This document shows, piece after piece, positions 1,270-25,200 of a stretch of 51,853 nucleotides of DNA. The notes under the pieces were generated by a model, which was not told the origin of the DNA, ran no database searches, and saw only the letters and a program-made list of their open reading frames with translations. Position numbers and translations under genes: made by a program. Location of the stretch: NCBI GenBank assembly GCA_002898775.1, contig BEHK01000001.1, positions 1 to 51,853 of the forward strand, given 5' to 3'. Positions within the stretch are counted from its first letter, which is position 1, and each line of letters opens with the position of its first letter. Source of the stretch: a bacterium HR08 (GTDB taxonomy: Bacteria > Acidobacteriota > Blastocatellia > HR10).

Positions 1270-2274
1270 TTAGCGGCCTCGCCGTTGCTGTGGCTGCTCC
1301 TCACGGTAGACTTCCGTGTCAGGATAAAAATCGCTCCAGGCGAACCAGAAGAGCGCAATCGAAGGGATGAGAATCCCGCTCTCATCGGTGACGTATCCGG
1401 TCTCCGATTTCTTGTCGAAGTGGATGATGACCTTCTTCCCGTTGATCCGATCCTCGAACCGTTCGGGCTTCTTCTTCAAGATGGCGAACGGATAAGCCTT
1501 CTTCACGCCGTTCACCGAGAGGCCGAGCACGCGCTCCATGGGCCTGAGTTTTACGCCCGACTTCGTCTCTTTGGGCGGCCGCCGGAAGCGCGGCGGCTGG
1601 CCCATCTCCCAGTATTCTTGATAGGGATTCAGGCCGTAATCGCGGCGGAATCCCGTCTCGGGCGAGAGGACGAGCGTCTGAGGATGTTGCGCCCGCCAGT
1701 ACGCCCACGTCGTGTGCAGACTCGGCAGGACCGCGAGCTTCGCTCCTGTCATCGGGCCGGCGATGGCTTCTCCCTTGAGCTGCGACCAGAGACTCTCGGT
1801 CTGGCGGTCGTACATGACCAAGGCCGCCTTGTAGAGTTTGCCCGACACGCCAAAGGTGAATCGCTTGCCGTCAATGATCGGGTCGTACACGACGCCCGAA
1901 CTGCAAAGCGGTCACCAGGTGACGAGAACGGGCCGATCCCCAACCCGATCGTTGACGATCTCGTGCCAGTTGAGGATCTTGATCGGGTAGGCTTTGGCCG
2001 CGCCGGCGAGCGAAACACCTAAGACGCGGTCCCAAGGACGCAGGAATTTTTCGGCCTCGCGAGCCGAGACGAATGTGGGCGAGTCGAGAGCCGGGATGCC
2101 GTCTTTAGGCGGTCCGCCGCCTTGAATGTCTTCGAGTGGAACCGAGCGCTTGGTGACGTCGAACGGGCGCTGACCCGGACCCGCATCGAGATATTGCTTC
2201 TCTTGAACGAACGCGATGAGCCCGCCCGGGCCCATCACGCAACAGAGAGCGGCAATCAGAACCGATGTCTTCAT
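1270..2274 (-). CDS. DUF3179-family exported protein with an in-frame TGA (1912-1914) at the first Cys of the conserved CPxC motif; candidate selenoprotein (UPLC)
   Basis: ORFs 1912-2274 and 1270-1890 are in the same frame (1005 nt in total) and are joined only by a TGA. The read-through gives VLVTW-U-PLCSSGVVYD followed by GVSGKLYKAALVMYDRQTESLWSQ, which is DUF3179-like. It has an N-terminal membrane anchor or signal, and a GGGAGG SD lies 7 nt upstream of the ATG. Confidence 0.7.
1878..1899 (-). promoter_or_regulatory. Candidate SECIS-like hairpin downstream of TGA 1912-1914
   Basis: The RNA ucgggcgucg-ugua-cgacccga forms a bulged 8-bp stem. The apical loop UGUA lies 23-26 nt after the UGA. 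Confidence 0.4.
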
Positions 2275-3000: not shown

Positions 3001-4065
3001 CTACTTGTTGCGTCCCCTTTGGCGAGCGACCGGGGTGTAAATCTTCGTATCCGGGAAGTAGGCGGCCCAGGCGTACCAGGCTCCCGTGTGAGCCGGCACG
3101 GCTGCAAGTTGCTCGCCGCGCAGTCGCCCCGACTCGGCGCGACCGGCCAAGTTCCACCGGGAGCGCGTGGCCGTATCCACCGCATCGAGCCGTTGGCCCT
3201 GCCGATCCGCGTTTTCGAACCGGAGCACGCGCTTGCCCAGCTTGCGCTCGTAAGCGGCTGCGGTGTTCGCCTGTGGGTCGTAGAAGACGACGATCGGCAC
3301 GCCGCCGACGACATCGTTGATCACGCCGCCCGCCTGCTTGAGCGTGGATAAGGGATAGGCTTTGCGTTCATCGCCCAGGGCCACCGCCAGGACCAGCTCC
3401 ATCCTTCCCAATCGCTCATCCCGATGCGTGAGCGTGCGCTCGAAAACGGGGCTGAGCTGCCGGGGCTGCCAGCGGAAGGGCTTGTAGTGGGCTTGATGCG
3501 GCGTCCGGTTGGAAACGATCAGCGTATCGGGATGGAGCTGTTTCCACTTCGCCCAGCTCGTCTGCACGACCGCGAGTTTGTTGAGTCTTTGGCCTGCGAG
3601 CGGGCCGTCCATCGCCTCACCGCTCGTCAACGACCAGACGCTCCCCGTCTCCCGATCGGCGAACACCAGTTCGGCATTATACAACCCGTGAGGCTTGAAC
3701 GTCAGCCGCTTCCCCTCGTCGGTCGCGGAGTCGAACCCGACTCCCGTCCCGCAGACCGGTCAGTAGACGAGGACGATGGAGCGGCCCCTGACGACGTCGT
3801 TGACCACGTGATGATAGGCCATGATCCGGAGCGGATAGGCCCGGCTCTCTCCCTCAAGTGCAATGCCCATCACCGTCTCGTTGTCATCCAGGTAGCCACT
3901 ATCGGGATGGGTGGCGGGGATGAACTCCGGGTTGGTCAACTCCGGGGGGAATTGGGTGACGACGAAGAGCTTGTCTTTTTGGAACTGAGAAAGCGCGTTC
4001 ATAGGTCCCATCGTCAAGAGAGCGACGAGCGGCACCGTCAGGCGGCCGAATCGTCGAAGCGTCAT
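3001..4065 (-). CDS. DUF3179-family exported protein (paralog) with an in-frame TGA (3760-3762) at the first Cys of CPxC; candidate selenoprotein (UPVC)
   Basis: ORFs 3760-4065 and 3001-3684 are in frame (1065 nt). The read-through gives RSIVLVY-U-PVCGTGVGFD followed by LYNAELVFADRETGSVWS. It has a signal-like N-terminus, and an AAGGAGGTGA SD lies upstream. Confidence 0.7.
3727..3744 (-). promoter_or_regulatory. Candidate SECIS-like hairpin downstream of TGA 3760-3762
   Basis: GGAGUCG-GGUU-CGACUCC is a perfect 7-bp stem. The loop GGUU lies 23-26 nt after the UGA, the same register as in the paralog. Confidence 0.5.
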
Positions 4066-4163: not shown

Positions 4164-4703
4164 TCAGGGCTCGGACAATAATCGTTCGACCTCGCGGACG
4201 AAATCCTCCTCGTCCATGAAACCGGCGTGCTCGGCACGGATGCGCCCTTTCCGATCAATGAAAAACGTCATGGGGAGTCCCGTCAATGCGCCGAACTTTT
4301 CCGCGACTTTTTCATCGCCAAGGATGACGGTGTAGGGGAGAGCGTGTTCCCGGATGAACGTTTTGACTTCTCGTTCGTCCTCGTCCAGGGAGATGGCGAT
4401 GATCTCCAGCCCCTTATCTCGATACGTCGCGTGGAGCTTCTTGAAGGTTGGGACTTCCATCACGCAGGGAGGGCACCAGGTCGCCCAAAAATCCACGATG
4501 ACGACTTTGCCCCGCAGGGAGGCCAAACTCACCGGGCGACCGTGAACGTCCACAAGCTCGAGCTCCGGTGCGGGCCGGCCCCTGTCATCAGCATCCTTGT
4601 CGGCCGCAACGGCGAGAGTCGGATCATGAGCGGGGACGCATGACCATGTGCCTCTGTTGCCGACGATGAGCGACATTCCGGCAGCCAGGACGACGGCGAT
4701 CAC
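4164..4703 (-). CDS. TlpA/ResA-like membrane-anchored thiol:disulfide oxidoreductase (thioredoxin fold, WCPPC)
   Basis: It contains GKVVIVDFWATWCPPCVMEVP and LPMTFFIDRKG. The start is uncertain. I chose GTG 4703 (or ATG 4676) because the longer ORF to 5003 would read through palindromic repeat copy a at 4731-4768. Confidence 0.8.
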   Translation of the reverse strand: MIAVVLAAGMSLIVGNRGTWSCVPAHDPTLAVAADKDADDRGRPAPELELVDVHGRPVSLASLRGKVVIVDFWATWCPPCVMEVPTFKKLHATYRDKGLEIIAISLDEDEREVKTFIREHALPYTVILGDEKVAEKFGALTGLPMTFFIDRKGRIRAEHAGFMDEEDFVREVERLLSEP

Positions 4704-4730
4704 CCCAGCAAGTTCCTGCGAGAGGCGAGC

Positions 4731-4768
4731 GGGGTCCCCAAGCGATCTCTGGATCGCTTGGGGTGCCC
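4731..4768. repeat. Palindromic repeat family, copy a
   Basis: The sequence is ggggtCCCCAAGCGATCtctgGATCGCTTGGGGtgccc, with a 12-bp perfect stem. Confidence 0.85.
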
Positions 4769-5048
4769 GAGCGGTTCCTCGTGCTCTTGAGCGTCTCAGC
4801 ACGGCTGTCGAGGGTATCGCGATATGGTCCGAAACAGTCGGCCGTAGGCGCGGCCAGATGGCCTCGCGCTCCGGCGTCGGACAACGCCATCTGGTATTCT
4901 TCGATCGGTCATGATCGTCTCCGGCAGATTGAGAATTCGCATCGAACGGCCAGCTTAGCGCCACTGGACCGCGCCGTTCAGTAGTCGAGATTACACGTCG
5001 CAAAACGTCTCTTGCCGGTGTCCCTTCCGCCTCTGTCGAAAAAAGGGC

Positions 5049-5080
5049 TTGACCTTGCAGTTGGCTGCAAGGTTTAGAAT
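5049..5080 (+). promoter_or_regulatory. MerR/CueR-type promoter-operator
   Basis: In TTGACC-ttgcagttggctgcaaggtt-TAGAAT the spacer is 20 nt. It carries a perfect dyad ACCTTGCAG-N4-CTGCAAGGT that overlaps the -35 element. Confidence 0.7.
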
Positions 5081-5104: not shown

Positions 5105-5554
5105 ATGTCGGGTCGGACGTTTTACATCGGCGAGCTGGCGCGGGCCGTGGGGGTGAAGCCCCAGACGGTTCGCTATTACGAGCGGGAGGGATTGTTGGGA
5201 CGGGCGGCGCGGACGCGTTCGGGCTACCGCCTCTACGATGAGGAGGCGCTCTTGCGGCTGCGCTTCATTCGAGCGGCGCAAGCGCTGGGGCTGTCGCTGG
5301 CGGAGATTCGAGAGCTTGTGGTGCTCAGCCGCGAGGGACGGTCCCCGTGCGCGCGAGTCCGAACCTTGCTCCGAGAAAAGCTTCGGGCGCTGGATCAGAA
5401 GATCGCCGAGCTGCGAGCCTTTCGCCGGGAGCTGGCCGCTCGACTCGCTCAATTGGACGCGATGCCCGATCAAGCAGACTCCTCGCCCTACGTCTGCTCG
5501 CTCATCATGACGCTGGCCCGGCGTCACCGTCCAGATCACGGAAAGGAGGGATGA
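5105..5554 (+). CDS. MerR-family heavy-metal-responsive transcriptional regulator
   Basis: The N-terminal HTH reads YIGELARAVGVKPQTVRYYEREGLL. It has a coiled-coil dimerisation helix and Cys residues at GRSPCARV and PYVCSL. An AGGAGG SD lies upstream. Confidence 0.85.
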   Translation: MSGRTFYIGELARAVGVKPQTVRYYEREGLLGRAARTRSGYRLYDEEALLRLRFIRAAQALGLSLAEIRELVVLSREGRSPCARVRTLLREKLRALDQKIAELRAFRRELAARLAQLDAMPDQADSSPYVCSLIMTLARRHRPDHGKEG

Positions 5555-5557
5555 CCT

Positions 5558-5731
5558 ATGCGACGAACCCGTCGGATCGTGCTGTTGCTGGCCTTGAGCG
5601 TGGCGATCGGATCGGGAGCACTCTATGGGTTCAAGGTGTCGTCCGAGAGCCCGGCGAGCTGCCCGGGTCGGATCGTCTGCCCGCTCACGGGCAAGATCAT
5701 CTGTCGCGACGCCTGTCCGCTGAAGAAGTGA
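5558..5731 (+). CDS. 57-aa membrane-anchored Cys-rich peptide (not in ORF track, under 60 aa)
   Basis: The peptide is MRRTRRIVLLLALSVAIGSGALYGFKVSSESPASCPGRIVCPLTGKIICRDACPLKK. A GGAGGG SD lies 7 nt upstream, and the start is 4 nt after the regulator stop. Confidence 0.5.
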   Translation: MRRTRRIVLLLALSVAIGSGALYGFKVSSESPASCPGRIVCPLTGKIICRDACPLKK

Positions 5732-5749
5732 CGGCGTCGGTCACCGCAG

Positions 5750-5773
5750 GGGAGCGCCTGCGAGGGCGCTCCC
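5750..5773 (+). other. GC-rich stem-loop between the small peptide gene and the next gene
   Basis: GGGAGCGCC-tgcgag-GGCGCTCCC has a 9-bp stem and no U-tract. It may be an attenuator or a processing site. Confidence 0.3.
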
Positions 5774-5813
5774 TCGTGGAGGGAAGGAGGCTGAGATAGA
5801 GAAGCGGCGCGCT

Positions 5814-6101
5814 ATGGTTCGCCGGTGGGGGCCAATCTACAGTGGGGTGGCGGTGCTGGCATCGCTCCCCTGGTGCTGACTGGCGCCGACGGTGTTCGCC
5901 CTGCTCGGGACAGCAGGGACCGTCGCCGCGCACATGATCTTCGTCCGCGGGAATGCGATCTTCGAGGGCCTCACCGTGTACGCTCTGCTGCGCGCGCATT
6001 ATCTGGTGAACGTGAGGGGGCAGGGAGGGCGAACGGCTCGCTTCACGGTGTGGGCGGGGACACTCGTCTCGGCCTTGCTTTGGAGCTTTCGCCTCTTTTG
6101 A
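5814..6101 (+). CDS. MerT/MerF-like small membrane protein with an in-frame TGA (5877-5879) at the second Cys of the TM1 Cys-Cys pair; candidate selenoprotein (C-U)
   Basis: The read-through VLASLPWC-U-LAPTVFALLGTAGTV aligns with ASLCCTGPLVAALLGLGS of the MerT-like proteins at 8310 and 10791. ORF 5892-6101 is in frame with ATG 5814. The product has about three hydrophobic helices. The SD is weak. Confidence 0.55.
5899..5918 (+). promoter_or_regulatory. Candidate SECIS-like hairpin downstream of TGA 5877-5879
   Basis: CCCUGC-ucgggaca-GCAGGG has a 6-7 bp stem. The loop begins 26 nt after the UGA. Confidence 0.35.
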
Positions 6102-6115
6102 CCGGGAACCGTCAC

Positions 6116-7126
6116 ATGCCCTATCGGCCGGAAACTTCGGAATTCGTAGCGGCCTTTGCCTCGACGGCAGAGCCTCAGGAAAAGCCAGCAGGAAAGCCTG
6201 CGCCATTCCGGAGAGCGCGGTCCTGGAGCGCGGCGCTTTTGTTCCTCGGCGGCGTGGGGCTTTCATCGGCTGAACTGCGCGCCCAGACCATCGTGGCTCC
6301 GAGCGCGCGCACGCTCTTCAATCGGGCGACGCTTGTGCGCTTGTCGGTCGAAGTCCGGCATTCGTCCCTTCGAACAGACGGAAGATCAACCGCTGTCACT
6401 CAGTATGTCCCGGTGCTGGCCGTCGTCTATGGATTTCGCCCGAACTGGACGATCATCGTGGCTCAGCCTTACGCGGTCGTAGATGTGACCAACCGGATGG
6501 GGGATGAAACCCGACGAGAGAGCTTGAACGGCCTGGCTGATACGCGGGTGTTTATTCAATACGATGGGCTTTACAGGCGCAACACGCCCGGCGGGCTGAC
6601 GCGGCTATCGGCGGTCTTTGGTGTGCAGGTCCCCACCGGTGCCGATCGGTTCTCAACAGGTGCGGTGGCTTATACTGGCGGAATGATCTTCCAGAAAGCG
6701 GTGAGGTTGAAGCATGTCTTCACCGGAGATTTCGAATATACTCGTGCGACCGAGAACCGTCGGGGCCTCTCGATGGGCGACCGGATCCGGTTTGACGCCG
6801 CTCTGTCGCGCTTTGTTATTTCCCAGGATAAAGCTCCGCCTGGCGCGAGTTGGCCGCGCAAGGCCTTCGATCGCATCTTTCGTTACGGAGCGTACTTCGT
6901 CCTGGAACTCAACGGCACTTGGCAGGCTCGCGCCCGCACTCGCGGAACTCCGATTCCCGACAGCGGCGGGACGATGCTCTCGGTGTCGCCGGGAATCCAG
7001 TGGTTTTTGAGCAACGCGTTTTTGGTCGAGATTTCCGCCCCGATTCCAGTCGTCAAGGCGCTCAGCGGGAAGCAGCCCAAACCCAACTCGACGTTTCTCT
7101 TGGGATTCCGGATTCTGTTTTTCTGA
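6116..7126 (+). CDS. Outer-membrane beta-barrel protein (MetA/transporter-like), signal peptide
   Basis: Starting at ATG 6116 gives a signal-like SWSAALLFLGGVGLSSAELRAQ. The sequence has an alternating beta-strand pattern and ends in LLGFRILFF with a terminal Phe. Confidence 0.5.
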   Translation: MPYRPETSEFVAAFASTAEPQEKPAGKPAPFRRARSWSAALLFLGGVGLSSAELRAQTIVAPSARTLFNRATLVRLSVEVRHSSLRTDGRSTAVTQYVPVLAVVYGFRPNWTIIVAQPYAVVDVTNRMGDETRRESLNGLADTRVFIQYDGLYRRNTPGGLTRLSAVFGVQVPTGADRFSTGAVAYTGGMIFQKAVRLKHVFTGDFEYTRATENRRGLSMGDRIRFDAALSRFVISQDKAPPGASWPRKAFDRIFRYGAYFVLELNGTWQARARTRGTPIPDSGGTMLSVSPGIQWFLSNAFLVEISAPIPVVKALSGKQPKPNSTFLLGFRILFF

Positions 7127-7169: not shown

Positions 7170-7733
7170 ATGAGAAAGCAAGGCATGTGGCTTCTGTTTG
7201 TATTTTGCCTTCTTACCGCCGTGCCGGTGTCGGCCCAGGTCGAGAAGGCGAGGGTCAAAATTGACGGCATGATCTGAGGTCTCTGAGCGCGAGGGGCTCA
7301 GAGAGCCCTCCAACGCCTGGATGGCGTTGATCGTGTCGAGGTGAATTTGGTGAAAGGGGAAGCCGAAGTATTTTCCAAGCCCGAGAAGTCTTTCGATCCT
7401 GTCCTGATCCCTAAGGCTCTTCGGGAGGCCGGCTTCACGGCGACCGAGGTCGTGGTGACGGCTGAGGGAACTCTGATCAAGGGGGAGGAAGCCTTCACAC
7501 TGGATGTTCCGGGACTGGCGCACCCGTTTGTGCTGGCCGGCGGAGCACAGGCCGACACGCTCAGAAAACGGACAGACCTCGTGGGGAAGAAAATCCGCGT
7601 GACCGGGAAGCTTCATCCCAGCCATGCGGATCATCCGCCCGGCCTTACGGTCGAGAGCTTTGAGCAGTTGCGCGAGGATGGTCTCGGCCTCGGCGGGAAA
7701 ATGGTGTTGCGCCTGGTGGGGCGGAGAATGTGA
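7170..7733 (+). CDS. Secreted HMA (MerP/CopZ-fold) domain protein whose GMxCxxC metal site is encoded as GM-I-TGA-G-L-TGA; candidate U-x-x-U selenoprotein
   Basis: The signal peptide ends VSA/Q. Then comes VKIDGMI-U-GL-U-ARGAQRALQRLDGVDRVEVNLVKGEAEVF...ALREAGF, a canonical HMA fold. The TGAs are at 7275-7277 and 7284-7286, and everything is in frame with ORF 7341-7733. A GGAGG SD lies 8 nt upstream. Confidence 0.7.
7280..7310 (+). promoter_or_regulatory. Two overlapping, mutually exclusive hairpins at and after the paired TGAs (candidate SECIS)
   Basis: Stem A is UCUCUGAGC-gcgaggg-GCUCAGAGA (9 bp, and it includes the second UGA). Stem B is GAGGG(G)CUC-aga-GAGCCCUC (8 bp with a bulge). Confidence 0.4.
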
Positions 7734-7778: not shown

Positions 7779-7810
7779 TTGACTCTGGAGGCGAGTCCAG
7801 GGTTTATACT
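7779..7810 (+). promoter_or_regulatory. MerR-type promoter-operator
   Basis: In TTGACT-ctggaggcgagtccagggtt-TATACT the spacer is 20 nt. The dyad CyCTGGA-N6-TCCAGrG is imperfect. Confidence 0.65.
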
Positions 7811-7817
7811 TCCGATT

Positions 7818-8285
7818 GTGAAAACGAGCGGAGCAGAAGCGACGCTGTTGAAGATCGGGCAGGTGGCCGCCGAATGCGGCGTGAGCGTGGATACGCTCCG
7901 CTACTACGAGCGGTTGGGGCTTGTGCCCAAACCGGTGCGCACGGCGAGCGGGTATCGGCTCTACGATCGGCGCATCCTGGAGCGCTTGAGCTTCATCAAG
8001 CGGGCGCAGAGCTTCGGCTTCACGCTCGAGGAGATCAAACAGTTGCTCCAATTGCCGACGGCAGAACCGCGGACGTGCGCGGAAGTTCTTCAGGTGATCG
8101 AGCACAAGCTCGACGACCTCGATCGGCGATACGAAGAGATCAAGCGGCTGCGGCGGGAGCTGGCGGCCTACAAGGCCGAGTGCGAGCGGGCTCTCGCCGG
8201 GCGGAAGAGTTGTCCGGTCATCGAAGATTTTCTTCACCCTTCCTCTCGCGCGGCAAAGCCCCGGCGGGGGCGGAAGCGAGAGTGA
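7818..8285 (+). CDS. merR: MerR (mercury-type) transcriptional regulator
   Basis: The HTH reads KIGQVAAECGVSVDTLRYYERLGL. Three Cys residues are placed as in Hg-MerR (EPRTCAEV, AECERA, KSCPVIEDF; compare SCPLI in Tn21 MerR). The start is uncertain: GTG 7818, which would be nearly leaderless, or TTG 7848. Confidence 0.8.
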   Translation: MKTSGAEATLLKIGQVAAECGVSVDTLRYYERLGLVPKPVRTASGYRLYDRRILERLSFIKRAQSFGFTLEEIKQLLQLPTAEPRTCAEVLQVIEHKLDDLDRRYEEIKRLRRELAAYKAECERALAGRKSCPVIEDFLHPSSRAAKPRRGRKRE

Positions 8286-8309
8286 ACGGATGTCGTGGAA
8301 GGAGGGACG

Positions 8310-9116
8310 ATGAGAGAGAAGATCACACTGGGGGCATCACTCATTGGGGCGATCGCGGCGTCGCTCTGCTGCACGGGGCCGCTTGTGGCTGCGCTCCTTG
8401 GCCTGGGCAGTTTCGGCGCGGCGGCGGCCTTCGAGGCCTGGCGACCATATTTGCTCGGCGTCACGGCAGTGCTGCTTCTCGCAGCGTTTTATTTCACCTA
8501 CCGCCGGCCAAAGGTCGCTTGCGCCGAGGGCGCGTGCGCGACGTCCGAGGCTTCGCGGTGGAGCAAGCTCGCGCTGTGGATCGCTGCGGGCGCCGTCATA
8601 GCACTTGCGGCCTTTCCGTATTATTCGGGGCGGCTGTGGGCGGCGCTCGGTCGCCACGCGGGCGGGCCATCGGCGTCACACGCGCAGGCGGCGACCGGCC
8701 GAATCATCACGGCGCGAATGGCCGTCACGGGGATGACCTGCGGCGGGTGCGCAACTGCGCTGGAAGCAGCGCTCAGAGAGATCTCCGGAGTGCAATTGGC
8801 GGCGGCGAGCTACGAGAAAGGCGAAGCCACCGTCGAGTACGATCCGGCGCGGGTCAAGTTAGAAAAGCTTGTGGAAACGGTCAAGGAGACCGGATTCACG
8901 GTCGAAGCTGTGACGGCGACCATCCCTGTCGAAGGGATGACCTGTGCCGGGTGCGCGGTGTCGGTCCGGCAGGCGCTCCTGCAGCGCGATGGGGTGAAGG
9001 CTGTGGAAGTCAGTGTCGAGAAGAAGCACGCCGTCGTGACGTTCGATCCGGCCCGCCTCACCCTCGAGCAAGTGGCCGACGCGATCAACAAAACGGGTTT
9101 CAAGGCCCTCCTGTGA
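8310..9116 (+). CDS. merT: MerT-like mercuric transporter fused to two HMA (MerP-like) domains
   Basis: TM1 reads ASLCCTGP, the loop carries CAEGAC, and there are two GMTCxxC domains (GMTCGGCA and GMTCAGCA). Confidence 0.8.
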   Translation: MREKITLGASLIGAIAASLCCTGPLVAALLGLGSFGAAAAFEAWRPYLLGVTAVLLLAAFYFTYRRPKVACAEGACATSEASRWSKLALWIAAGAVIALAAFPYYSGRLWAALGRHAGGPSASHAQAATGRIITARMAVTGMTCGGCATALEAALREISGVQLAAASYEKGEATVEYDPARVKLEKLVETVKETGFTVEAVTATIPVEGMTCAGCAVSVRQALLQRDGVKAVEVSVEKKHAVVTFDPARLTLEQVADAINKTGFKALL

Positions 9117-9262: not shown

Positions 9263-9790
9263 ATGTCCGAGTGTTGCCAGGTGCCGATCGTGGCCAATTC
9301 AGCTCACTGCCGCTTGTGCGGGCGGAAAGGACAGTCCGTCACGCGGCGGACGATGGAACACTTGCTCGTGGATTCGGCGAGGGCCCGCCTCGAGGATCAT
9401 CCCTACTTTTTCTGCGCGACGCCGACCTGTCCGGTCGTCTACTTTTCCAACGAGGCGGATTCCTACTTCTGCAAAGGTGATGTGCGCGTGCGGGTGGGAG
9501 TGAAGGAAACCGAAGATCCGGTGCCGATCTGCTATTGCTTCGGCATCACGGAGAAGATGGTGCGCGATGAGATCGCAGCGACGGGACGGACGACGATTCC
9601 CGATTACATCAAGGCGCAAATCAAATCGGGCCGATGCGCTTGTGAGATCATGAATCCTTCGGGCCGATGCTGCCTCGGCGTCGTGACCGGGATCGCGCTC
9701 AGACTAGTGAAGCGATCGGGCTCGACAAGGAAGCGGGAAGAATCTATTGCGGCCTCGATGCCCGAGTGCTGCGCGGTGACGAAGTCGTGA
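9263..9790 (+). CDS. Cys-rich CopZ-family / putative Fe-S metallochaperone-like protein
   Basis: It contains MSECCQVP, CRLCGRKG, YFFCATPTCPVVYF, a BFD-like ICYCFGIT and a C-terminal PECCAV. A GAGGAGGTG SD lies upstream. Confidence 0.6.
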   Translation: MSECCQVPIVANSAHCRLCGRKGQSVTRRTMEHLLVDSARARLEDHPYFFCATPTCPVVYFSNEADSYFCKGDVRVRVGVKETEDPVPICYCFGITEKMVRDEIAATGRTTIPDYIKAQIKSGRCACEIMNPSGRCCLGVVTGIALRLVKRSGSTRKREESIAASMPECCAVTKS

Positions 9791-10344: not shown

Positions 10345-10794
10345 ATGACGGACAAAGCCGTGCTCAAGATCGGCGAAGTGGCTGCGCGAAGTGGCGTCGG
10401 CATTGACACCTTTCGCTACGATGAGCGGCTCGGCTTGTCGCCTCGAGCGGTGCACACCCGGAGCGGTTATCGCGTGTATGATCCGAACGCGATTGATCGA
10501 ATCGCCTTCATTAAGCGGGCCAAGAGCTTCGGTTTCGCCCTCAATGAAATCTGCGATCTCGTCCGGGCTGAGACCGCAGACCCTGAAACCTGCTTCACTG
10601 TGTTGCGGGTGATTGAACGAAAGCTTGGTGATCTGAATCGCCGACATGCAGAGATCAAACGACTGAGGCGAGAGCTGGCCGTCTACAAAGCCACCGGCGA
10701 GCGGGCCATCGCCGACGACAAGGCTCGTCCGGTCATCGAGGATTTTCTTCAGGGCTCCTATCAACGAACGGGCAACGGAGGGAACAAAACATGA
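10345..10794 (+). CDS. MerR-family regulator, paralog lacking two of the three Hg-ligand Cys residues
   Basis: The HTH reads KIGEVAARSGVGIDTFRYDERLGL. It keeps ETCFTV, but where the paralog has AECERALAGRKSCPVIEDF it reads ATGERAIADDKARPVIEDF. Confidence 0.8.
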   Translation: MTDKAVLKIGEVAARSGVGIDTFRYDERLGLSPRAVHTRSGYRVYDPNAIDRIAFIKRAKSFGFALNEICDLVRAETADPETCFTVLRVIERKLGDLNRRHAEIKRLRRELAVYKATGERAIADDKARPVIEDFLQGSYQRTGNGGNKT

Positions 10795-11669
10795 AAAGGG
10801 AGACAACGCTCGTAGCATCCGTGATCGCGGCGATCACGGCTTCGCTCTGCTGCCTGGGGCCGATTGTGGCCGCGGTCGTTGGCCTGGGCAGTTTTGGGGC
10901 GGCGGCTGTGTTCGAGACCTGGCGGCCCTATCTGCTAGGGGTGACCTTTGGGCTGCTCGGGCTGGGGTTTTACTTCACCTATCGCAAGCAGGAAGTACAC
11001 TGCGCCGATAGGAGTGTATGCGCGACGCGCCCTTCAGTAGGTCGGTGGAATAAAATCCTGCTGTGGCTGGCAACAGGTCTCGTCATCGCCTTCGCCACGT
11101 TTCCGTATTACTCCGGAGCAGTCTGGAGGTTCTTGTTGACTAAAGGGGAAACGCAAGCGATAACCGATCCGGCAGCCCCAGGCGATTCGCCGTCACGATC
11201 GAATGAATTCGCCGTGGCGGGCCAAGCCCAACAGCCATCGTCACCAGCGGAGGAACCTCAAACCAGCTCGCCCAAGCTGGCGGCCGAATCTGCACGAGAT
11301 AGAGGGGCCGTTCGGAGGTCAATCTCAGCATCGAAAACATACGGAGGGACTGTTCAGAGGGCGGGCTCAGCATCAAAACCCCTGGCGGCCAACTCGCCAT
11401 CCACCACCGCCGCAATCCGCAATCCGCAAGACGTGCCCGCCCTGACACGCGCAACGATTGAAATTCAAGGCATGCATTGTGCCGGCTGTGCGGTGAATGT
11501 TGAGCAAGCACTCAAGCGACTGCCGGGCGTTAAAGCTGTCGTAGCAAGCTATGAAAAAGGTCAGGCCGTAGTTGAGTACGATCCAGCGAAAGTCAAGCCG
11601 GAACAGCTCAAAGCCGCTATTGACGGGATCGGATACAAGGTCGGAGCGGTGCACACAGCGCAACCGTGA
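10791..11669 (+). CDS. merT: MerT-like transporter fused through a low-complexity linker to one HMA domain
   Basis: It contains ASLCCLGP, the loop CADRSVC and GMHCAGCA. Its start overlaps the regulator stop (ATGA). Confidence 0.8.
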   Translation: MKRETTLVASVIAAITASLCCLGPIVAAVVGLGSFGAAAVFETWRPYLLGVTFGLLGLGFYFTYRKQEVHCADRSVCATRPSVGRWNKILLWLATGLVIAFATFPYYSGAVWRFLLTKGETQAITDPAAPGDSPSRSNEFAVAGQAQQPSSPAEEPQTSSPKLAAESARDRGAVRRSISASKTYGGTVQRAGSASKPLAANSPSTTAAIRNPQDVPALTRATIEIQGMHCAGCAVNVEQALKRLPGVKAVVASYEKGQAVVEYDPAKVKPEQLKAAIDGIGYKVGAVHTAQP

Positions 11670-14168: not shown

Positions 14169-15566
14169 ATGGAGAGGAAGGTAAAGGTTGGTGCCGTTCT
14201 GGCGCTCCTCATTTTGGCCGGAGTGCTTTGGCTCGCCCTGCCCTCGGGCGGGCTCGTTCCTGAGGACGTATCGGTTTCAGCCTCCGAGTTGCCATCGGCG
14301 GAGACGTGCAAACCGTGCCACGAGGAGATCTATAATCAGTGGCGAGAGTCGTATCACGCCCGCTCGATTCACGAGCCTACCTTCCGAGCCATGCTGACCA
14401 TCTTTGCCTACAACACGCGCGGGACGAATCCCGAGGTGTGGGGCCCGAATTATGAGTTCTGTTTTAACTGCCATGCGCCGGAAGTGAAAGTCAAAAACAA
14501 TGCCGCCGAGCTGGCCCGCCAAATCCGCAACGGCGAGAAGATCACGAGCGAAGGGATCACCTGCACGGTCTGTCACTCCATCGAGTGGGTGACGGACATT
14601 CCGGATCCCAATGTGCCGGTCGCATTCGATGTGGGTCCGACACTGCCCTACCACAAAGTGAAAAAGACCGCCTTGTTCGAGCAATCGGTGCTTTGCTCGC
14701 CCTGTCACGATTACAACAATCCGTATGCGGTCGTGGCCCATCAGGTCTATAAATCCGATCCCGGGGTCACGGGCGTGCCGTGCTGTACGGTCAACCGAGA
14801 CTGGAAAAAGACTTCGTATGCCCAAAAAGGCATCACCTGCCAATCCTGCCACATGCGCGAAGAACAGCAGGTCGTCCAGTTAAGTGGGTTCGATAAGTTT
14901 AAAAACATGCTGTACGCCCTGACGGGGCTGACGCGATATCGAGATGACCGGCGGCGCGTCAGTCATACCTTCCCTGGCGGGCGCTCCGAAGAGATGCTCA
15001 AGCGCGCCGTAAAGATGGAGATCGAAGCCGAATCCGCGGGAGACGACATCAAGGCGACCGTCGCTTTGAGAAACCTCACTGGCCATAGCATCCCCAACGG
15101 CTGACCGCCGAGGACGCGCATCGTGCTCAGGTTCTGGGCACAGGACGAACACGGCAATGAACTCTTCTCCGACACGAGAGAATACGGGTTCAACTTCGTT
15201 GATCCGAAAGGCAACGAGCCGGCCATGGTGGATAGCACAAGCGGTCGAGGGTATGAGGTTGTGCTTGAACCCGAGGTGACGCGGCGCGAGTCGTTCGCTT
15301 TCCCCCGGCCTGAAGGGAGCCGGCGGCTTGAGCTGAAGGCGACTCTGACGTACATCTTCTTCGTTCCACCGCCGCCGGACGCCATGAACCGAATGCAACA
15401 GGACATCATCGCTCGGATACAAACCGCTAAGACGCCAGAGGAGAAGGATCGAATTCTGAACGAAGAGATTCCGGCGCGGATGCGGTCCATGAATATCTTG
15501 GCGACAACCTATCCGCCGGTGGTCATGGCGTCCGTGACGAAGGCCTTGGAGATCGGGAGGCGTTGA
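14169..15566 (+). CDS. Periplasmic multihaem cytochrome c (five CxxCH) interrupted by one in-frame TGA (15102-15104); either a read-through (Sec?) product or a pseudogene
   Basis: The haem motifs are CKPCH, CFNCH, CTVCH, CSPCH and CQSCH. ORFs 14169-15104 and 15123-15566 share a frame (1398 nt) and read LTGHSIPNG-TGA-PPRTRIVLRFWAQDEHG. Confidence 0.55.
15123..15141 (+). promoter_or_regulatory. Hairpin downstream of TGA 15102-15104
   Basis: GUGCUCAG-guu-CUGGGCAC has 8 bp including one G-U pair. The loop lies 27-29 nt after the UGA. Confidence 0.3.
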
Positions 15567-21083: not shown

Positions 21084-23482
21084 ACGCAAAAGACGGCTGC
21101 GCCTTCGGCCAACCGGGAATTCCGCCTCGATGGACCTCAAGCTCGAAGGAGGGAGTGGGAACAGCTTACAGCACGTCCAGTCGCGTCTGGTTTACCATCT
21201 CACATGGCATCCTCAACGAGGTCTATTATCCGACGATTGACCGCCCGCAGATCAGAGACCTCGAGTTCCTCATCAGCGATGGTGAGACCTTCTTTCACGA
21301 AGAGAAGCGCCACCTCGTCCACCAGATCGAGTACATCGAGCGTCATACGCTGGGCTATCGCATCACGAGCACCGACCCGCAGGGGCGATATCGGATCATC
21401 AAAGAGATCATCGCGGACCCTCATGCCCCTTGTGTGCTCATACACGCCAGGATCGAAACGGCCGCGGAGTGGTCGGATCGCTTGCAGGTTTATGCGTTGC
21501 TTGCGCCACATCTGGAAGTGGGAGGTTGGGGCAACTCGGCTCGAAAGTTTCGCGTTGCGGGAAGCGATGTCCTCGTAGCTTGGAAAGGCCGGACCTATCT
21601 GGCTATGGGAACGAACGTAGGTTTCGCTAAGACATCCTGTGGATACGTGGGCGCAAGCGACGGCTGGCAAGATCTAAACGACAACTTTCAGATGGACTGG
21701 CAGTTCGAACGGGCTGAGGACGGGAATGTTGCCGTCATCGGACAGATCGCCCTGACCAAAGATAAGGAATTCACCTTAGGATTGGCCTTTGGAGACGGAC
21801 TGCACGCAGCGGTGACAACTCTGATTCAATCGTTAAGTGTGCCTTTTGCCGAACAGAGGGAGAAATATATCGAGCAATGGCATCGCGTCTGCTGCGATAT
21901 CCTTGATTTGGATGGGTACTCCTGCGACGGTGGGCGCCTGTATCGTATCAGCCACAGCTTGTTGCTGGCGCACGAGGATAAGACGTTCGCCGGGGCTCTG
22001 ATCGCCTCGGCGAGCATCCCGTGGGGAGACGCGAAGGGTGATGAGGATCTCGGCGGCTACCATCTGGTATGGACTCGTGACATGGTTCACAGTGCCACGG
22101 GGCTTTTAGCCTGTGGCGACGCGGTGACGCCACGTCGGGCGCTCATCTATCTGGCCTGCTCGCAGCGCGCCGACGGAGGCTTTCCGCAAAACTTCTGGCT
22201 CGATGGAACGCCGTACTGGAACGGCATCCAGCTTGACGAGGTGGCCTTCCCCGTGATGTTGGCCTGGCGGTTGTGGAAGGCCGATGCGCTGGGTGAGTTC
22301 GACCCTTATCCGATGGTCCGGGCAGCCGCCGCGTACTTGATTCGCCAAGGTCCGGCGACGCAGCAAGAGCGCTGGGAGGAAAACAGCGGATATTCGCCCT
22401 CGACGCTCGCCGCGACCATTGCCGCGCTGATCTGCGCCGCAGACTTCGCCCGCTCGCGCGATCACCGGGAAGCGGCTCTTTTCCTCGAAGAGTATGCTGA
22501 CTTCTTGGAATCACACGTCGAGCGCTGGACGGTGACGACACAAGGGAGTTTGGTACAAGGGATCTCAAGGCATTACATTCGTATTCTTCCCACGGACATT
22601 AATGACCCTGCGCCGGAGGAGGACCCGAATCGCGGCGTGCTTCAGATTCGCAACAGACCTCCGGGCGAAAAGTGGGAGTTTCCGGCAAAAGATATCGTTG
22701 ATGCGGGCTTCTTGGAATTAGTCCGTTACGGCATACGTAAACCGGGAGACCCGCTCATCGAAGACTCGCTCGAAGTTGTGGACGCTGTGCTCAAGGTGGA
22801 TACGCCCTTTGGTCCCTGCTGGCGCCGCTACAACTACGATGGATACGGGACGCGTCCGGACGGCGGCCCGTTTGAGGGATGGGGAAAGGGGCGAGCGTGG
22901 CCGCTTCTTACCGGTGAGCGAGGTCACTATGAGCTTGCTGCTGGCCGCGATGTGAGACCGTATATCCGGGCGATGGAGTGCTTCGCTTCCAGAGGGGGCA
23001 TGCTTCCTGAGCAAGTGTGGGACGAGCCGGACCGGCCTGATCTGGGCCTGTACCTGGGCCGGCCGGCAGGTTCGGCAATGCCTCTGATGTGGGCGCATGC
23101 GGAATACATCAAGCTGCTCAGATCGGCCGCCGACGGCCAGGTGTTCGATCTGATTCCAGTTGTGGCCGAGCGTTATCTTGCTGGGCGTGGACGCAAGGAC
23201 CTTGAGGTGTGGAAACCAAACCGCCAAGTGCGGCGAGTCGTGCCAGGGCAGGTGTTGCGCGTTCAAGCGCCGGCGCCCTTTCGGCTCCGGTGGACGGCGA
23301 ACGAATGGCAGAGTTTCCAGGATACGATGTCGCTCTCCAGCAGCCTGGGCATCTTCTTCGTGGATATCCCTGTGGCTGAAGGACAGCGTGCGCCCATCCG
23401 ATTCGCATTCTTCTGGACCGACAGGGAGCAATGGGAAGACCAAGAGTACCGAGTTGAAGTCGAAGAGAAAGCCAGGTCATGA
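21080..23482 (+). CDS. GH15 glucoamylase / glucodextranase-like glycoside hydrolase
   Basis: It contains PRWTSSSKEGVGTAYS, ILNEVYYPTIDRPQIRDLEF, YHLVWTRDMV and ERWEENSGYSPSTLA. ATG 21080 overlaps the DedA stop (ATGA). The track ORF from 20651 is a spurious N-terminal extension. Confidence 0.85.
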   Translation: MNAKDGCAFGQPGIPPRWTSSSKEGVGTAYSTSSRVWFTISHGILNEVYYPTIDRPQIRDLEFLISDGETFFHEEKRHLVHQIEYIERHTLGYRITSTDPQGRYRIIKEIIADPHAPCVLIHARIETAAEWSDRLQVYALLAPHLEVGGWGNSARKFRVAGSDVLVAWKGRTYLAMGTNVGFAKTSCGYVGASDGWQDLNDNFQMDWQFERAEDGNVAVIGQIALTKDKEFTLGLAFGDGLHAAVTTLIQSLSVPFAEQREKYIEQWHRVCCDILDLDGYSCDGGRLYRISHSLLLAHEDKTFAGALIASASIPWGDAKGDEDLGGYHLVWTRDMVHSATGLLACGDAVTPRRALIYLACSQRADGGFPQNFWLDGTPYWNGIQLDEVAFPVMLAWRLWKADALGEFDPYPMVRAAAAYLIRQGPATQQERWEENSGYSPSTLAATIAALICAADFARSRDHREAALFLEEYADFLESHVERWTVTTQGSLVQGISRHYIRILPTDINDPAPEEDPNRGVLQIRNRPPGEKWEFPAKDIVDAGFLELVRYGIRKPGDPLIEDSLEVVDAVLKVDTPFGPCWRRYNYDGYGTRPDGGPFEGWGKGRAWPLLTGERGHYELAAGRDVRPYIRAMECFASRGGMLPEQVWDEPDRPDLGLYLGRPAGSAMPLMWAHAEYIKLLRSAADGQVFDLIPVVAERYLAGRGRKDLEVWKPNRQVRRVVPGQVLRVQAPAPFRLRWTANEWQSFQDTMSLSSSLGIFFVDIPVAEGQRAPIRFAFFWTDREQWEDQEYRVEVEEKARS

Positions 23483-23535
23483 CTGTGTCACCGGTGTATG
23501 GCGCTCACTCAATCCTCGATAAGGAGGTACAGACG

Positions 23536-25200
23536 ATGACTGAGCGAACGCATGTCACTTTGCGCATTGAAGGGATGACCTGCGACGGTTGCGCCCGGCA
23601 TGTCACTGAGGCGCTCAAGAACGTCGCCGGGGTCATCGAAGTTCACGTGCCCGGCTGGCGGTCGGGACAGGCCACAGTCATCGCCGAAGCCGGCATTAGC
23701 GACGAGGCATTGATTCGTGCCGTCCGCGACGCGGGCTATCGCGCCCTGGTGCGCGAACGGCGACCGCTGGAAGGCGAGCGTCGAGCGCCGAAGCCAGAAA
23801 GGGCCGATTATGATCTCATGATCATCGGCGGCGGATCGGCGGGGTTTGCGGCTGCGATCAAAGGCGCAGAGTTGGGCGCGAACGTGGCCATTGTCGAGGG
23901 CGGCACCATCGGCGGCACGTGCGTCAACATCGGCTGCGTGCCTTCGAAGACGCTGATCAAGGCAGCCGAACTCTGCTACCGCTCCGCCTATCCCAAATTC
24001 GAAGGACTCACCGCTTGTCCGCCGCCGTCGGATTGGCGGCGAGTCGTCGAACAAAAAGATGAATTGGTGGCGGCCCTGCGTCAGGGCAAGTACATCAACG
24101 TGGTGGATGTGTATCCCAATATCACGCTCATTCGCGGCTGGGCCAGGCTCACGGGCGGTCGCCAAGTCTCGGTCAACGGCACGACCTATACGCCGGGGAA
24201 GATCATCATTGCAACCGGCTCGCGTCCGTGGGCGCCGCCGATTCCGGGGTTGAAAGAAGCGGGGTACTTGGACAGCACCGATGCTTTGAGTCTTCCGGCC
24301 TTGCCGCAATCGCTCCTGATCATCGGAGCCGGAGCCATCGGGCTTGAACTAGGGCAGCTCTTCAGCCGCTTCGGTGTGCGCGTGATGATCCTCGAGGCTG
24401 GCCCTCACGTCGCGGGGATGGAGGAACCGGAGATCGGAGAGGCGCTCACGCGGTACCTCGAAGAGGAGAAGATGCGCATCTGCACCGGGGTGACCATCCA
24501 TCGCGTCGAGCGGGTAGGGAACGAGTACCACGTCATGGCGACCATCAATGGACGCGAGGAGATCTGCGCGGCGGAGCAAGTGATGGTGGCGACCGGACGA
24601 CGGCCCAATACCGGGGGATTGGGATTGGAAGAGGCCGGAGTGCAGGTCGGCACGCGCGGGGAGATCCTGGTCAACGAGTATCTGCAAACGACCAATCCCG
24701 ACATCTACGCGGCGGGCGATTGTATCGGCGATCCGATGTATGTTTACGTGGCCGCTTATGCCGGTGGAATGGCGGCGGAGAATGCCCTGACCGGAGCGGG
24801 ACGGATTTACGATCTTTCAGCTCTGCCGCATGTCATCTTCACCGACCCGCAGGTGGCGAGCGTGGGCCTGACCGAAGCGCAGGCGCGGGAGAAAGGATTG
24901 AAGGTCAAAACGTCGGTCTTGCATCTGAAAGACGTGCCGCGGGCGCTGGCGGCTCGCGATACGCGGGGGCTCATCAAGCTCGTCGCCGAAGAGAGTACAG
25001 GCCGACTCCTTGGGGCACACGTTCTAGCCGATGAAGCGGGCGAGGTGATTCAAGAGGCAACGCTGGCCATTCGCTTCGGGCTGACGATCAAAGACATTGT
25101 CGAGACGTTCCACCCTTACTTGACGATGGTTGAAGGGCTGAAGTTGGCGGCGCTCGCGTTCGAACGAGACGTGGCCAAGCTCTCCTGCTGCGCCACCTGA
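23536..25200 (+). CDS. merA: Mercuric reductase MerA with N-terminal HMA domain
   Basis: It contains GMTCDGCA, the FAD motif IIGGGSAGFAAA, the redox site GGTCVNIGCVPSK and a C-terminal KLSCCAT. An AAGGAGG SD lies 8 nt before ATG 23536. Confidence 0.95.
   Translation: MTERTHVTLRIEGMTCDGCARHVTEALKNVAGVIEVHVPGWRSGQATVIAEAGISDEALIRAVRDAGYRALVRERRPLEGERRAPKPERADYDLMIIGGGSAGFAAAIKGAELGANVAIVEGGTIGGTCVNIGCVPSKTLIKAAELCYRSAYPKFEGLTACPPPSDWRRVVEQKDELVAALRQGKYINVVDVYPNITLIRGWARLTGGRQVSVNGTTYTPGKIIIATGSRPWAPPIPGLKEAGYLDSTDALSLPALPQSLLIIGAGAIGLELGQLFSRFGVRVMILEAGPHVAGMEEPEIGEALTRYLEEEKMRICTGVTIHRVERVGNEYHVMATINGREEICAAEQVMVATGRRPNTGGLGLEEAGVQVGTRGEILVNEYLQTTNPDIYAAGDCIGDPMYVYVAAYAGGMAAENALTGAGRIYDLSALPHVIFTDPQVASVGLTEAQAREKGLKVKTSVLHLKDVPRALAARDTRGLIKLVAEESTGRLLGAHVLADEAGEVIQEATLAIRFGLTIKDIVETFHPYLTMVEGLKLAALAFERDVAKLSCCAT

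Follow-up and report, generated by a model that had tools for sequence, protein, structure and literature searches.

A predicted Cys-Sec selenoprotein of the MerT superfamily in a putative metal-responsive operon of an Acidobacteriota bacterium

The first 51,853 nucleotides of contig BEHK01000001.1 from bacterium HR08 (Acidobacteriota), hereafter the window, carry at 5814-6101 on the forward strand a frame of 95 codons with a single internal TGA at 5877-5879, which in translation places the motif SLPWC-U-LAPTVFALLGTAG near the N-terminus of a small hydrophobic protein. This locus raises the question of whether the TGA ends a gene or encodes selenocysteine (Sec, U) at the site where the mercury transporter MerT carries a vicinal pair of cysteines, and, should it encode Sec, what such a protein would do. 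The explanation that best accounts for the observations, to which we give a probability of roughly 0.78, is that the locus encodes a selenoprotein of the MerT superfamily with a Cys21-Sec22 dyad, expressed from a metal-inducible operon and taking part in a soft-metal relay.

The in-frame TGA and its hairpin

The features on which the reading of the TGA depends are as follows.

5814-6101, forward strand: coding sequence of the predicted MerT-like selenoprotein, 95 residues, from the window's first ATG to the stop TGA at 6099-6101
5877-5879, forward strand: in-frame TGA, proposed Sec22, aligned with the second Cys of PWCC and of the MerT CC pair
5881-5934, forward strand: hairpin resembling a selenocysteine insertion sequence (SECIS), with core stem 5899-5905/5912-5918, apical loop 5906-5911, and lower stem 5881-5893/5919-5934
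5784-5798, forward strand: Shine-Dalgarno (SD) sequence AAGGAGG (5784-5790), then ATA (5796-5798) at the position of the orthologues' ATG, from DNA alignment and translations
5750-5773, forward strand: intercistronic hairpin GGGAGCGCC-UGCGAG-GGCGCUCCC, kept in four orthologues

Translated in full, 5814-6101 reads MVRRWGPIYSGVAVLASLPWC*LAPTVFALLGTAGTVAAHMIFVRGNAIFEGLTVYALLRAHYLVNVRGQGGRTARFTVWAGTLVSALLWSFRLF*, with LWSFRLF* at its closing end, and both the open frame and the family motifs GRAHYL, W-ST, and LW-R run on past the TGA. Automated open reading frame (ORF) finding recovered only a 69-codon piece starting at GTG 5892, which has no SD in front of it, and public gene calls on related contigs likewise give products of 69, 53 or 52 residues. 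All inspected public calls for Sec forms are truncated (52-78 residues), apart from one read-through call of 100 residues.

The gene has orthologues elsewhere, one of them on contig JBEPZV010000001.1 (GCA_041640655.1), and the TGA is shared well beyond the window. Orthologues with 75-87% identity to the window protein (L001, identical to L002, L014, and L015; L003, identical to L018; and L005) have TGA at the identical codon and keep the upstream frame RWGPIxSGVAVxASLPWC, and the identical codon is also TGA in L016 and L017, members of a clade only ~35% identical to the window protein. In a third clade, comprising L021 (from a Gemmataceae metagenome-assembled genome), L022, and L023, U falls in the same alignment column. 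In total, 11 distinct Sec-form sequences from several clades share the position of the TGA codon, with conserved frames on either side. These forms came from two sources, a DNA pattern that included the TGA, run on metagenome contigs, and the final profile search, where they appeared as truncated proteins; the scan of genome contigs used a CC-only pattern, and so could return Cys forms only. The TGA-containing pattern was degenerate, consisting of S-[LI]-P-W-C-TGA and downstream family positions, and each of the five stretches that it matched in the metagenome contig collection belongs to the family. Within this set, L016 and L017 do not differ between a point upstream of the start and the end of the SECIS core (as far as SLLGLAG) and are wholly divergent thereafter; the pair may represent paralogues that have recombined, or a chimeric assembly with its junction in the conserved hairpin.

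Homologues with Cys in place of Sec define the position further. An exhaustive search with the C-terminal 69 residues of the window protein returned as its first Cys homologue a protein of 98 residues (P0004), reading ...SSIPWCCVIPGVLSVLGLGG..., and profile searches extended the family to 86 proteins. Among 91 collected family sequences, 66 are full-length with [LIVT]P[WL]CC, and ~23 are fragments truncated at the TGA position, which either start just past the TGA or stop at it, such as P0012, an N-terminal fragment whose last residue is the Cys just before the TGA. In the 66 full-length homologues, the residue facing U22 is the second Cys of [LIVT]P[WL]CC. The initial annotation had placed a Cys-Sec pair at the CC site, and had named a TGA outside that pair as the outcome that would speak against it; in the alignments the TGA falls inside the pair, on the second Cys both of PWCC and of the helix-1 pair of MerT.

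Downstream of the TGA lies a hairpin whose core is a 7-bp stem, CCCUGCU / AGCAGGG, around the loop CGGGAC, with a family consensus of CCCUGCU-CGGGNN-AGCRGGG and a minimum free energy of -29.7 kcal/mol over 5881-5934. The UGA stands 19 nt from the core stem and 26 nt from the loop, with the distance between UGA and hairpin constant in the 11 distinct sequences. The core motif occurs once in the window, where none is expected by chance, and CCUGCUCGGGNNAGCRGG recurs at every one of the 12 Sec-form loci but is absent from the 11 Cys-form loci. Furthermore, comparison of the window with L016/L017 over codons +7 to +14 shows all eight third positions to be identical, against about half in the flanking codons, with this freeze of synonymous sites across the stem spanning clades of ~35% protein identity. 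The other in-frame TGAs of the window also have hairpins at similar spacing. A loop with GGG, 26 nt past the UGA, fits the usual description of bacterial SECIS elements, and the hairpin at 5881-5934 is a putative SECIS that would help to decode UGA 5877-5879 as Sec. Some Cys-form genes (L006, L010, and L012) also fold a hairpin where the Sec forms have their SECIS, 22-45 nt past the CC codons, of unrelated sequence, for example CUGUGCUUA-GUUUUA-UAGGUGCAG, which may be a SECIS relic or simply a by-product of the LLGxxG codons.

Reassignment of TGA to Trp or Gly is excluded because neighbouring genes use TGA as their stop, with ordinary genes here terminating at 5729-5731, 6099-6101, and 7124-7126. 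Together, the TGA of the orthologues, the divergent Sec forms, the Cys homologues, and the Sec-specific hairpin make it highly likely that 5814-6101 is a selenoprotein gene that has been mis-annotated, with TGA 5877-5879 very probably its selenocysteine codon.

The start of the gene is less regular. ATG 5814 had been described as having only a weak SD, which is borne out, with the strong SD AAGGAGG (5784-5790) instead standing 5 nt before codon 5796-5798, which is ATG in L001, L003, and L005 and ATA in the window. The window's ATG 5814 is GTG in L003 and is deleted in L001. From either start the tail before U measures 21-27 residues, compared with 18-20 in the shortest Cys forms and in L016/L017. 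The ATA at 5796-5798 could reflect a shift of the start codon to the ATG 18 nt downstream, or an assembly error. The stem-loop at 5750-5773, noted from the outset as a feature upstream of the gene, is present and is kept in four orthologues, among which one base pair is altered on both sides. It does not look like an intrinsic terminator, having gone uncalled in a scan for terminators that demands a run of T past the stem, and is regarded as an intercistronic RNA element. A long ORF in the +1 frame, 5825-7126, was dismissed, as the outer-membrane protein begins at 6116 in the orthologues.

Relationship to MerT and variants of the dyad

Alignment of the family with a 14-sequence MerT alignment in hhalign gives a probability of 98.2% (E 5.8e-14) over 79 columns and places CC on CC, with the CC/CU of the family meeting the helix-1 CC of MerT after a two-residue insertion (PW). 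An 18-column gap falls where MerT has its cytoplasmic Cys pair, the family having there a shorter loop without Cys. The NCBIfam model merT_RC607 is matched by 7 of 7 family members tested (best E 2e-9), and MerTP_fusion by 6 of the 7, in both cases below the curated cut-off. The product had initially been called MerT/MerF-like: its likeness to MerT is upheld by the hhalign and merT_RC607 results, while by curated thresholds the protein belongs to neither MerT nor MerF, and it is without the cytoplasmic Cys pair.

The window itself supplies two further points of comparison, the MerT-HMA fusions at 8295-9116 and 10791-11669, both of which exist as previously described. BLASTP sets AVLASLPWCC on A(I)(A/T)ASL--CC of each (E 0.002 each), so that C-U does fall on their CC pair, but the alignment is not residue for residue as first claimed, since the two-residue PW insertion is needed.

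Family members share S-x-P-W-C-C, a Pro at +3, R-A-H-Y-L closing helix 2, and W...R in helix 3. Hydropathy analysis resolves clear helices in P0005 and L017, whereas in the window protein the first helix alone passes the threshold that was applied. The dyad lies just past the Pro break at the start of the first helix, as judged from hydropathy and a low-confidence AlphaFold model. A search of PDB sequences with the family profile returned only a spurious NuoK-like match (E 0.08), with no match to MerF. We are confident that the product of 5814-6101 is a MerT-superfamily homologue, with Sec predicted at the helix-1 dyad, and the protein would be a ~95-residue, three-helix inner-membrane protein by predicted topology. 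By curated thresholds, the protein falls outside MerT, MerF, and NF045683, and represents a small, separate branch of the MerT superfamily.

The dyad is not the same in all Sec forms, with CU found in the window clade and L016/L017, TU in L021 and in gene 1 of L022, NU in L023, and also UU. In the UU forms two consecutive TGA codons lie on the CC pair, at 467-472 within 389-700 of L022 and at 6169-6174 within 6105-6400 of L021 (GCA_035295665.1), in the contexts LPW-U-U-IIP and VPP-U-U-MLT, each followed by the same SECIS-like hairpin. Their tandem paralogues have TU or NU instead, and P0098 ends ...SLPW directly before a stop. The UU forms of L021 and L022 putatively carry two adjacent Sec residues within a transmembrane helix, and, if so, both residues of each pair would be served by one conserved SECIS. 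Text searches found no vicinal UU motif in the motif table of a 2026 review.

The TU/UU clade lies in a different, likewise conserved neighbourhood (L021 1978-6400; the P0088, P0098, and P0104 contigs, JGI 3300047160), which contains no mer genes and comprises a B12-binding radical SAM protein, DUF169, a small ORF, an ORF of 136-167 residues, the family member(s), an FGE-sulfatase, an HMA protein, and an ornithine/DAP decarboxylase. At ~724-1017 of L022 an HMA-like protein reads VPGMT-*-PTG-*-KERV, with two in-frame stops, probably TGA, three residues apart rather than the usual two. A broader proposal, which we put forward tentatively and at less than even odds, is that the window gene represents a family, so far unrecognised, of minimal MerT-like membrane selenoproteins in which the helix-1 dyad has been tuned across CC, CU, TU, NU, and UU. 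With UxxU periplasmic HMA partners, this family would make up a largely selenium-based soft-metal relay across the membrane, separate from the mer operon of classical type and perhaps not specific to mercury.

The putative operon, a proposed metal relay and rival readings

Five tightly spaced genes on the same strand, including the selenoprotein gene, form a putative MerR-controlled operon, of which the remaining features are as follows.

5049-5080, forward strand: MerR-type promoter read from the sequence, with -35 TTGACC (5049-5054), a 20-bp spacer, and -10 TAGAAT (5075-5080)
5105-5554, forward strand: MerR-family metal-responsive regulator, 149 residues, first gene of the operon (Pfam MerR_1, MerR-DNA-bind, and MerR)
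5558-5731, forward strand: 57-residue four-Cys peptide whose N-terminus is a hydrophobic anchor (SCPGRIVCPLTGKIICRDACP), from the ORF list
6116-7126, forward strand: outer-membrane beta-barrel of the Phenol_MetA_deg family, 336 residues (Pfam PF13557, E 4.6e-8)
7170-7733, forward strand: secreted HMA-domain protein with a UxxU site, GMI-U-GL-U, from TGA 7275-7277 and 7284-7286 in translation

The promoter lies between a divergent AhpC/Trx-like gene (4164-5003, reverse strand) and the MerR gene, with its spacer holding a perfect 9-nt dyad, ACCTTGCAG-N4-CTGCAAGGT (5052-5073, 100% complementary). Operators of the MerR family typically have over-long spacers with a dyad at their centre, and a generic sigma-70 scan, limited to spacers of 16-18 nt, missed this promoter, as expected. 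The regulator matches the ZntR, MerR, and CadR models of NCBIfam, all below their cut-offs, with ZntR best (111 bits). The 57-residue peptide has no Pfam or NCBIfam match, and its gene occupies the same place in L001, L002, L003, and L005. The HMA protein, with its UxxU site in the context KIDGMI-U-GL-U-ARG and the second TGA within a hairpin (CUCUGAGC...GCUCAGAG), has as its top NCBIfam match NF041115, a UxxU metal-binding (seleno)protein model (49 bits against a cut-off of 95), and is probably the periplasmic partner of the MerT-like selenoprotein.

Much of this arrangement recurs in relatives. A MerR gene lies directly upstream of family members in L001, L003, L004, L005, and L019 by gene calls and Pfam, in L006 by NCBIfam, and also in L008 and L009, as judged from MerR-like N-termini. 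The Phenol_MetA_deg barrel accompanies both Sec-form and Cys-form members, with Pfam calls in L001, L005, L019, and L020; mutually similar ORFs in the barrel position of L006, L009, L010, and L011 are unconfirmed, the one in L006 being without an NCBIfam match. Cys-form relatives, ~40% identical, occur in Desulfobacterota, Thermodesulfobacteriota, Dadabacteria, Omnitrophota, Binatia, and Neomarinimicrobiota, and their clusters are alike in having MerR, the family member, HMA proteins with signal-peptide-like N-termini, an outer-membrane barrel, and often an NHL-repeat protein. In L019, genes for HMA, MerF, and a MerA-like pyridine-nucleotide disulfide reductase lie ~3 kb upstream of the Cys-form member.

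Elsewhere in the window further selenoprotein and metal genes are found.

3001-4065, reverse strand: DUF3179 gene with an in-frame TGA at 3762-3760
About 1270-2274, reverse strand: second DUF3179 gene with an in-frame TGA at 1914-1912
2676-2674, reverse strand: in-frame TGA of an OsmC-like gene, at G-U-LTG-T (UxxT site)
7779-9116 and 10345-11669: MerR + MerT-HMA modules of the window's metal island
9263-9790: zf_CopZ/BFD protein of the metal island

Besides the TGA of the MerT-like gene, the window has five in-frame TGA codons at known Sec positions, one in each DUF3179 gene, one in the OsmC-like gene, and two in the HMA gene. The DUF3179 genes are split at Y/W-U-P-x-C, a known UxxC site; a hairpin lies ~25 nt downstream of each DUF3179 and OsmC-like TGA, and in related contigs these genes are annotated as two pieces. 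All three families (DUF3179, OsmC-like, and HMA) are listed as selenoproteins in reviews. The organism very probably uses Sec, with its DUF3179, OsmC-like, and HMA genes carrying in-frame TGA at known sites. The window also has the character of a metal-resistance island, with two more MerR + MerT-HMA modules, both Cys forms, and with MerA at 23479-25200 (TIGR02053, 583 bits against a cut-off of 454), 17 kb away. A cytochrome at 14169-15104 resembles the ExtKL (seleno)protein family, below the cut-off.

On the reading that we prefer, that of a MerT-superfamily selenoprotein in a metal relay, the operon would be co-transcribed from the MerR-type, metal-inducible promoter. A soft thiophilic metal ion, most probably Hg(II), would enter through the outer-membrane channel, be captured in the periplasm by the diselenol HMA protein, pass by ligand exchange onto the Cys21-Sec22 dyad in the membrane, and be released to cytoplasmic thiols or proteins for detoxification. 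The metal, the direction of transport, and the order of hand-off are our inference. Selenium offers a lower pKa, faster exchange, and a stronger bond to Hg. Homology to MerT and the nearby mer genes make Hg(II) the most likely substrate, with the chance that it is the specific substrate standing at about even.

Several observations weigh against this relay, or against parts of it. The insertion of Sec is itself deduced from sequence, and the 52-kb window has no tRNA-Sec, nor were SelA, SelB, or SelD among the ten large ORFs tested in this window. The folding z-score of the hairpin is just -1.47 in a GC-rich sequence, and its stem is nearly without compensatory change, its support thus coming from conservation and co-occurrence with the TGA and not from covariation. 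No relevant Rfam model matched at 5700-6200 (E<=10) or in the whole window (gathering score), a null result that is uninformative given the poor coverage of bacterial SECIS elements. In the window, ATA stands in place of the ancestral ATG, and ATG 5814 is without a good SD, making the level of expression in this genome uncertain. In L003 (= L018), TAG replaces the TGG of a conserved Trp before helix 3 at ~6160; the frame past this TAG stays conserved (AGTLASVGLWTIRLF), and the TAG may stem from a recent nonsense mutation or from an error in sequencing. On its own the window protein is a weak match to merT_RC607 (E 5e-5, 23.6 bits against a cut-off of 130, residues 19-90 of 95) and has no Pfam match, and the AlphaFold model of P0005, built from an 8-sequence alignment, shows three long helices at low confidence (predicted local distance difference test score of 63). 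Finally, the adjoining MerR has only two Cys (C82 and C131), compared with three in MerR proteins that sense Hg, and MerA is not in the operon.

These last two points mean that the metal could be other than Hg. The same selenoprotein might handle another soft metal or metalloid, such as Cu(I), Ag(I), Au(I), Cd(II), Zn(II), or Pb(II), or might serve in sequestration or export rather than import. In addition to a two-Cys regulator that scores best against ZntR models and a MerA no nearer than 17 kb, this alternative is favoured by the partner HMA proteins, which score about equally on CopZ and MerP models, by the second Sec-form clade, whose B12-radical SAM/DUF169/FGE-sulfatase/HMA neighbourhood is without mer genes, and by the absence from the family of the cytoplasmic Cys pair of MerT. 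It is nevertheless rather unlikely: mercury transporters are the only recognisable homologues, a true MerA and two additional MerR + MerT-HMA modules share the window with the gene, and in L019 the HMA, MerF, and MerA-like genes precede the Cys-form member by ~3 kb.

Alternatively, the Cys-Sec dyad could be a redox centre, forming a vicinal selenenylsulfide and passing reducing equivalents on to neighbouring thiol proteins, either across the membrane or within it. Thiol-redox genes do surround the locus (the AhpC/Trx-like gene, the DUF3179 selenoprotein genes, and the OsmC-like gene), Thioredoxin_3 lies immediately upstream of the Cys-form member of L019, and CU is the redox motif of thioredoxin reductase (GCUG in mammals). 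A redox role is improbable, however, given that the protein is homologous to MerT, where the CC pair acts as a metal ligand, that its conserved partners comprise metal sensors of MerR type and metal-binding HMA proteins, and that the TU and NU relatives have no vicinal partner with which to form a selenenylsulfide. That the TGA is a true stop, leaving a pseudogene with a nonsense codon in its CC pair or, as the real gene, the 69-residue ORF from GTG 5892, would agree with the short public gene calls, the weak SD at ATG 5814, and the additional TAG in L003, but is very improbable indeed, as the TGA is kept at one codon in 11 distinct sequences of several clades between two intact frames that decay would not preserve, a Sec-specific conserved hairpin follows it, no SD precedes GTG 5892, and the 69-residue product would be without helix 1 and the motif invariant in all 66 Cys forms.

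Comparison with known systems

Sec is rare in membrane transport proteins, with two prokaryotic transporter families validated by NCBI curators (Haft 2022, doi 10.1101/2022.07.06.499078) and only a handful given in the 2026 review. The initial annotation was right to call a membrane-embedded Sec in a MerT-type protein uncommon, although there is precedent for it in the same work and in NCBIfam NF045683. A compact, alignable family with CC, CU, TU, NU, or UU at the metal-accepting site, together with a UxxU periplasmic partner, would offer in its dyad variants a natural experiment on the part played by selenium in the capture and hand-off of Hg(II) or other soft metals. Truncated gene calls and the lack of a Pfam or NCBIfam model have left the family invisible to surveys of selenoproteomes and of mercury resistance.

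MerT-family CU selenoproteins have already been described (Haft 2022 preprint, doi 10.1101/2022.07.06.499078; NF045683, the NCBIfam 'MerT/CopZ fusion-like heavy metal transport selenoprotein'). Like the window protein, these are MerT-superfamily membrane proteins, described as having a Cys-Sec pair, in a heavy-metal context, the CU position being taken from the wording of that paper. In contrast, the window protein is unmatched by NF045683 at E<=1, and just one of seven relatives matches, at E 3e-4 (cut-off 375 bits). Furthermore, the NF045683 profile spans 235 positions with a fused CopZ/HMA domain, whereas the window protein has 95 residues and its HMA protein is encoded by a separate gene (7170-7733). 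A 'putative mercuric transport protein' selenoprotein of PF02411, ABB16073.1 (Zhang and Gladyshev 2007, PMC1976440; reviews PMC9312934 and PMC13188914), is likewise a predicted Sec-containing protein of MerT type, but has a C/SxxU motif according to the 2026 review rather than a vicinal CU and, unlike the window protein, which no Pfam model matches, belongs to the MerT family of Pfam.

Compared with MerT of Tn501/Tn21 (PF02411, NF010314) and of Bacillus RC607 (NF033560), the window family has in common three predicted hydrophobic helices, a vicinal pair at the opening of helix 1 with xxP and LLGxxG behind it, and, among its neighbours, a MerR regulator together with an HMA/MerP-like partner in the periplasm. 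The window protein differs in its sub-cut-off scores, its PW insertion, the replacement of the second Cys by Sec, and the absence of the loop Cys pair, and the family differs in its own invariant R-A-H-Y-L and in a Phenol_MetA_deg channel that replaces the classical merPA arrangement. Another small mercury transporter whose helix 1 carries a vicinal CC is MerF (PF11431, NF033565), which consists of two helices with a second CC pair near the C-terminus; the window protein, unmatched by the MerF models, has a single pair and a third hydrophobic segment.

More distant parallels are provided by the UxxU proteins of NF041115 and the SO_0444-family Cu/Zn efflux transporter selenoproteins (USC motif), which also place Sec for Cys at soft-metal sites, but belong to other folds and families, and are partners or analogues of the membrane protein and not its homologues. 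The Gly-Cys-Sec-Gly C-terminus of mammalian thioredoxin reductase offers the same vicinal Cys-Sec dyad, which there is a very high-affinity target of Hg(II) and Au(I), in the tail of a soluble flavoenzyme with a redox function and no homology to the window protein. The window family itself is without a Pfam or NCBIfam model, and is absent from the table of the 2026 review. Taken as a whole, the kind of protein is known and the family is new, being standalone and minimal, without a second Cys pair, and with a putative SECIS and a gene neighbourhood of its own.

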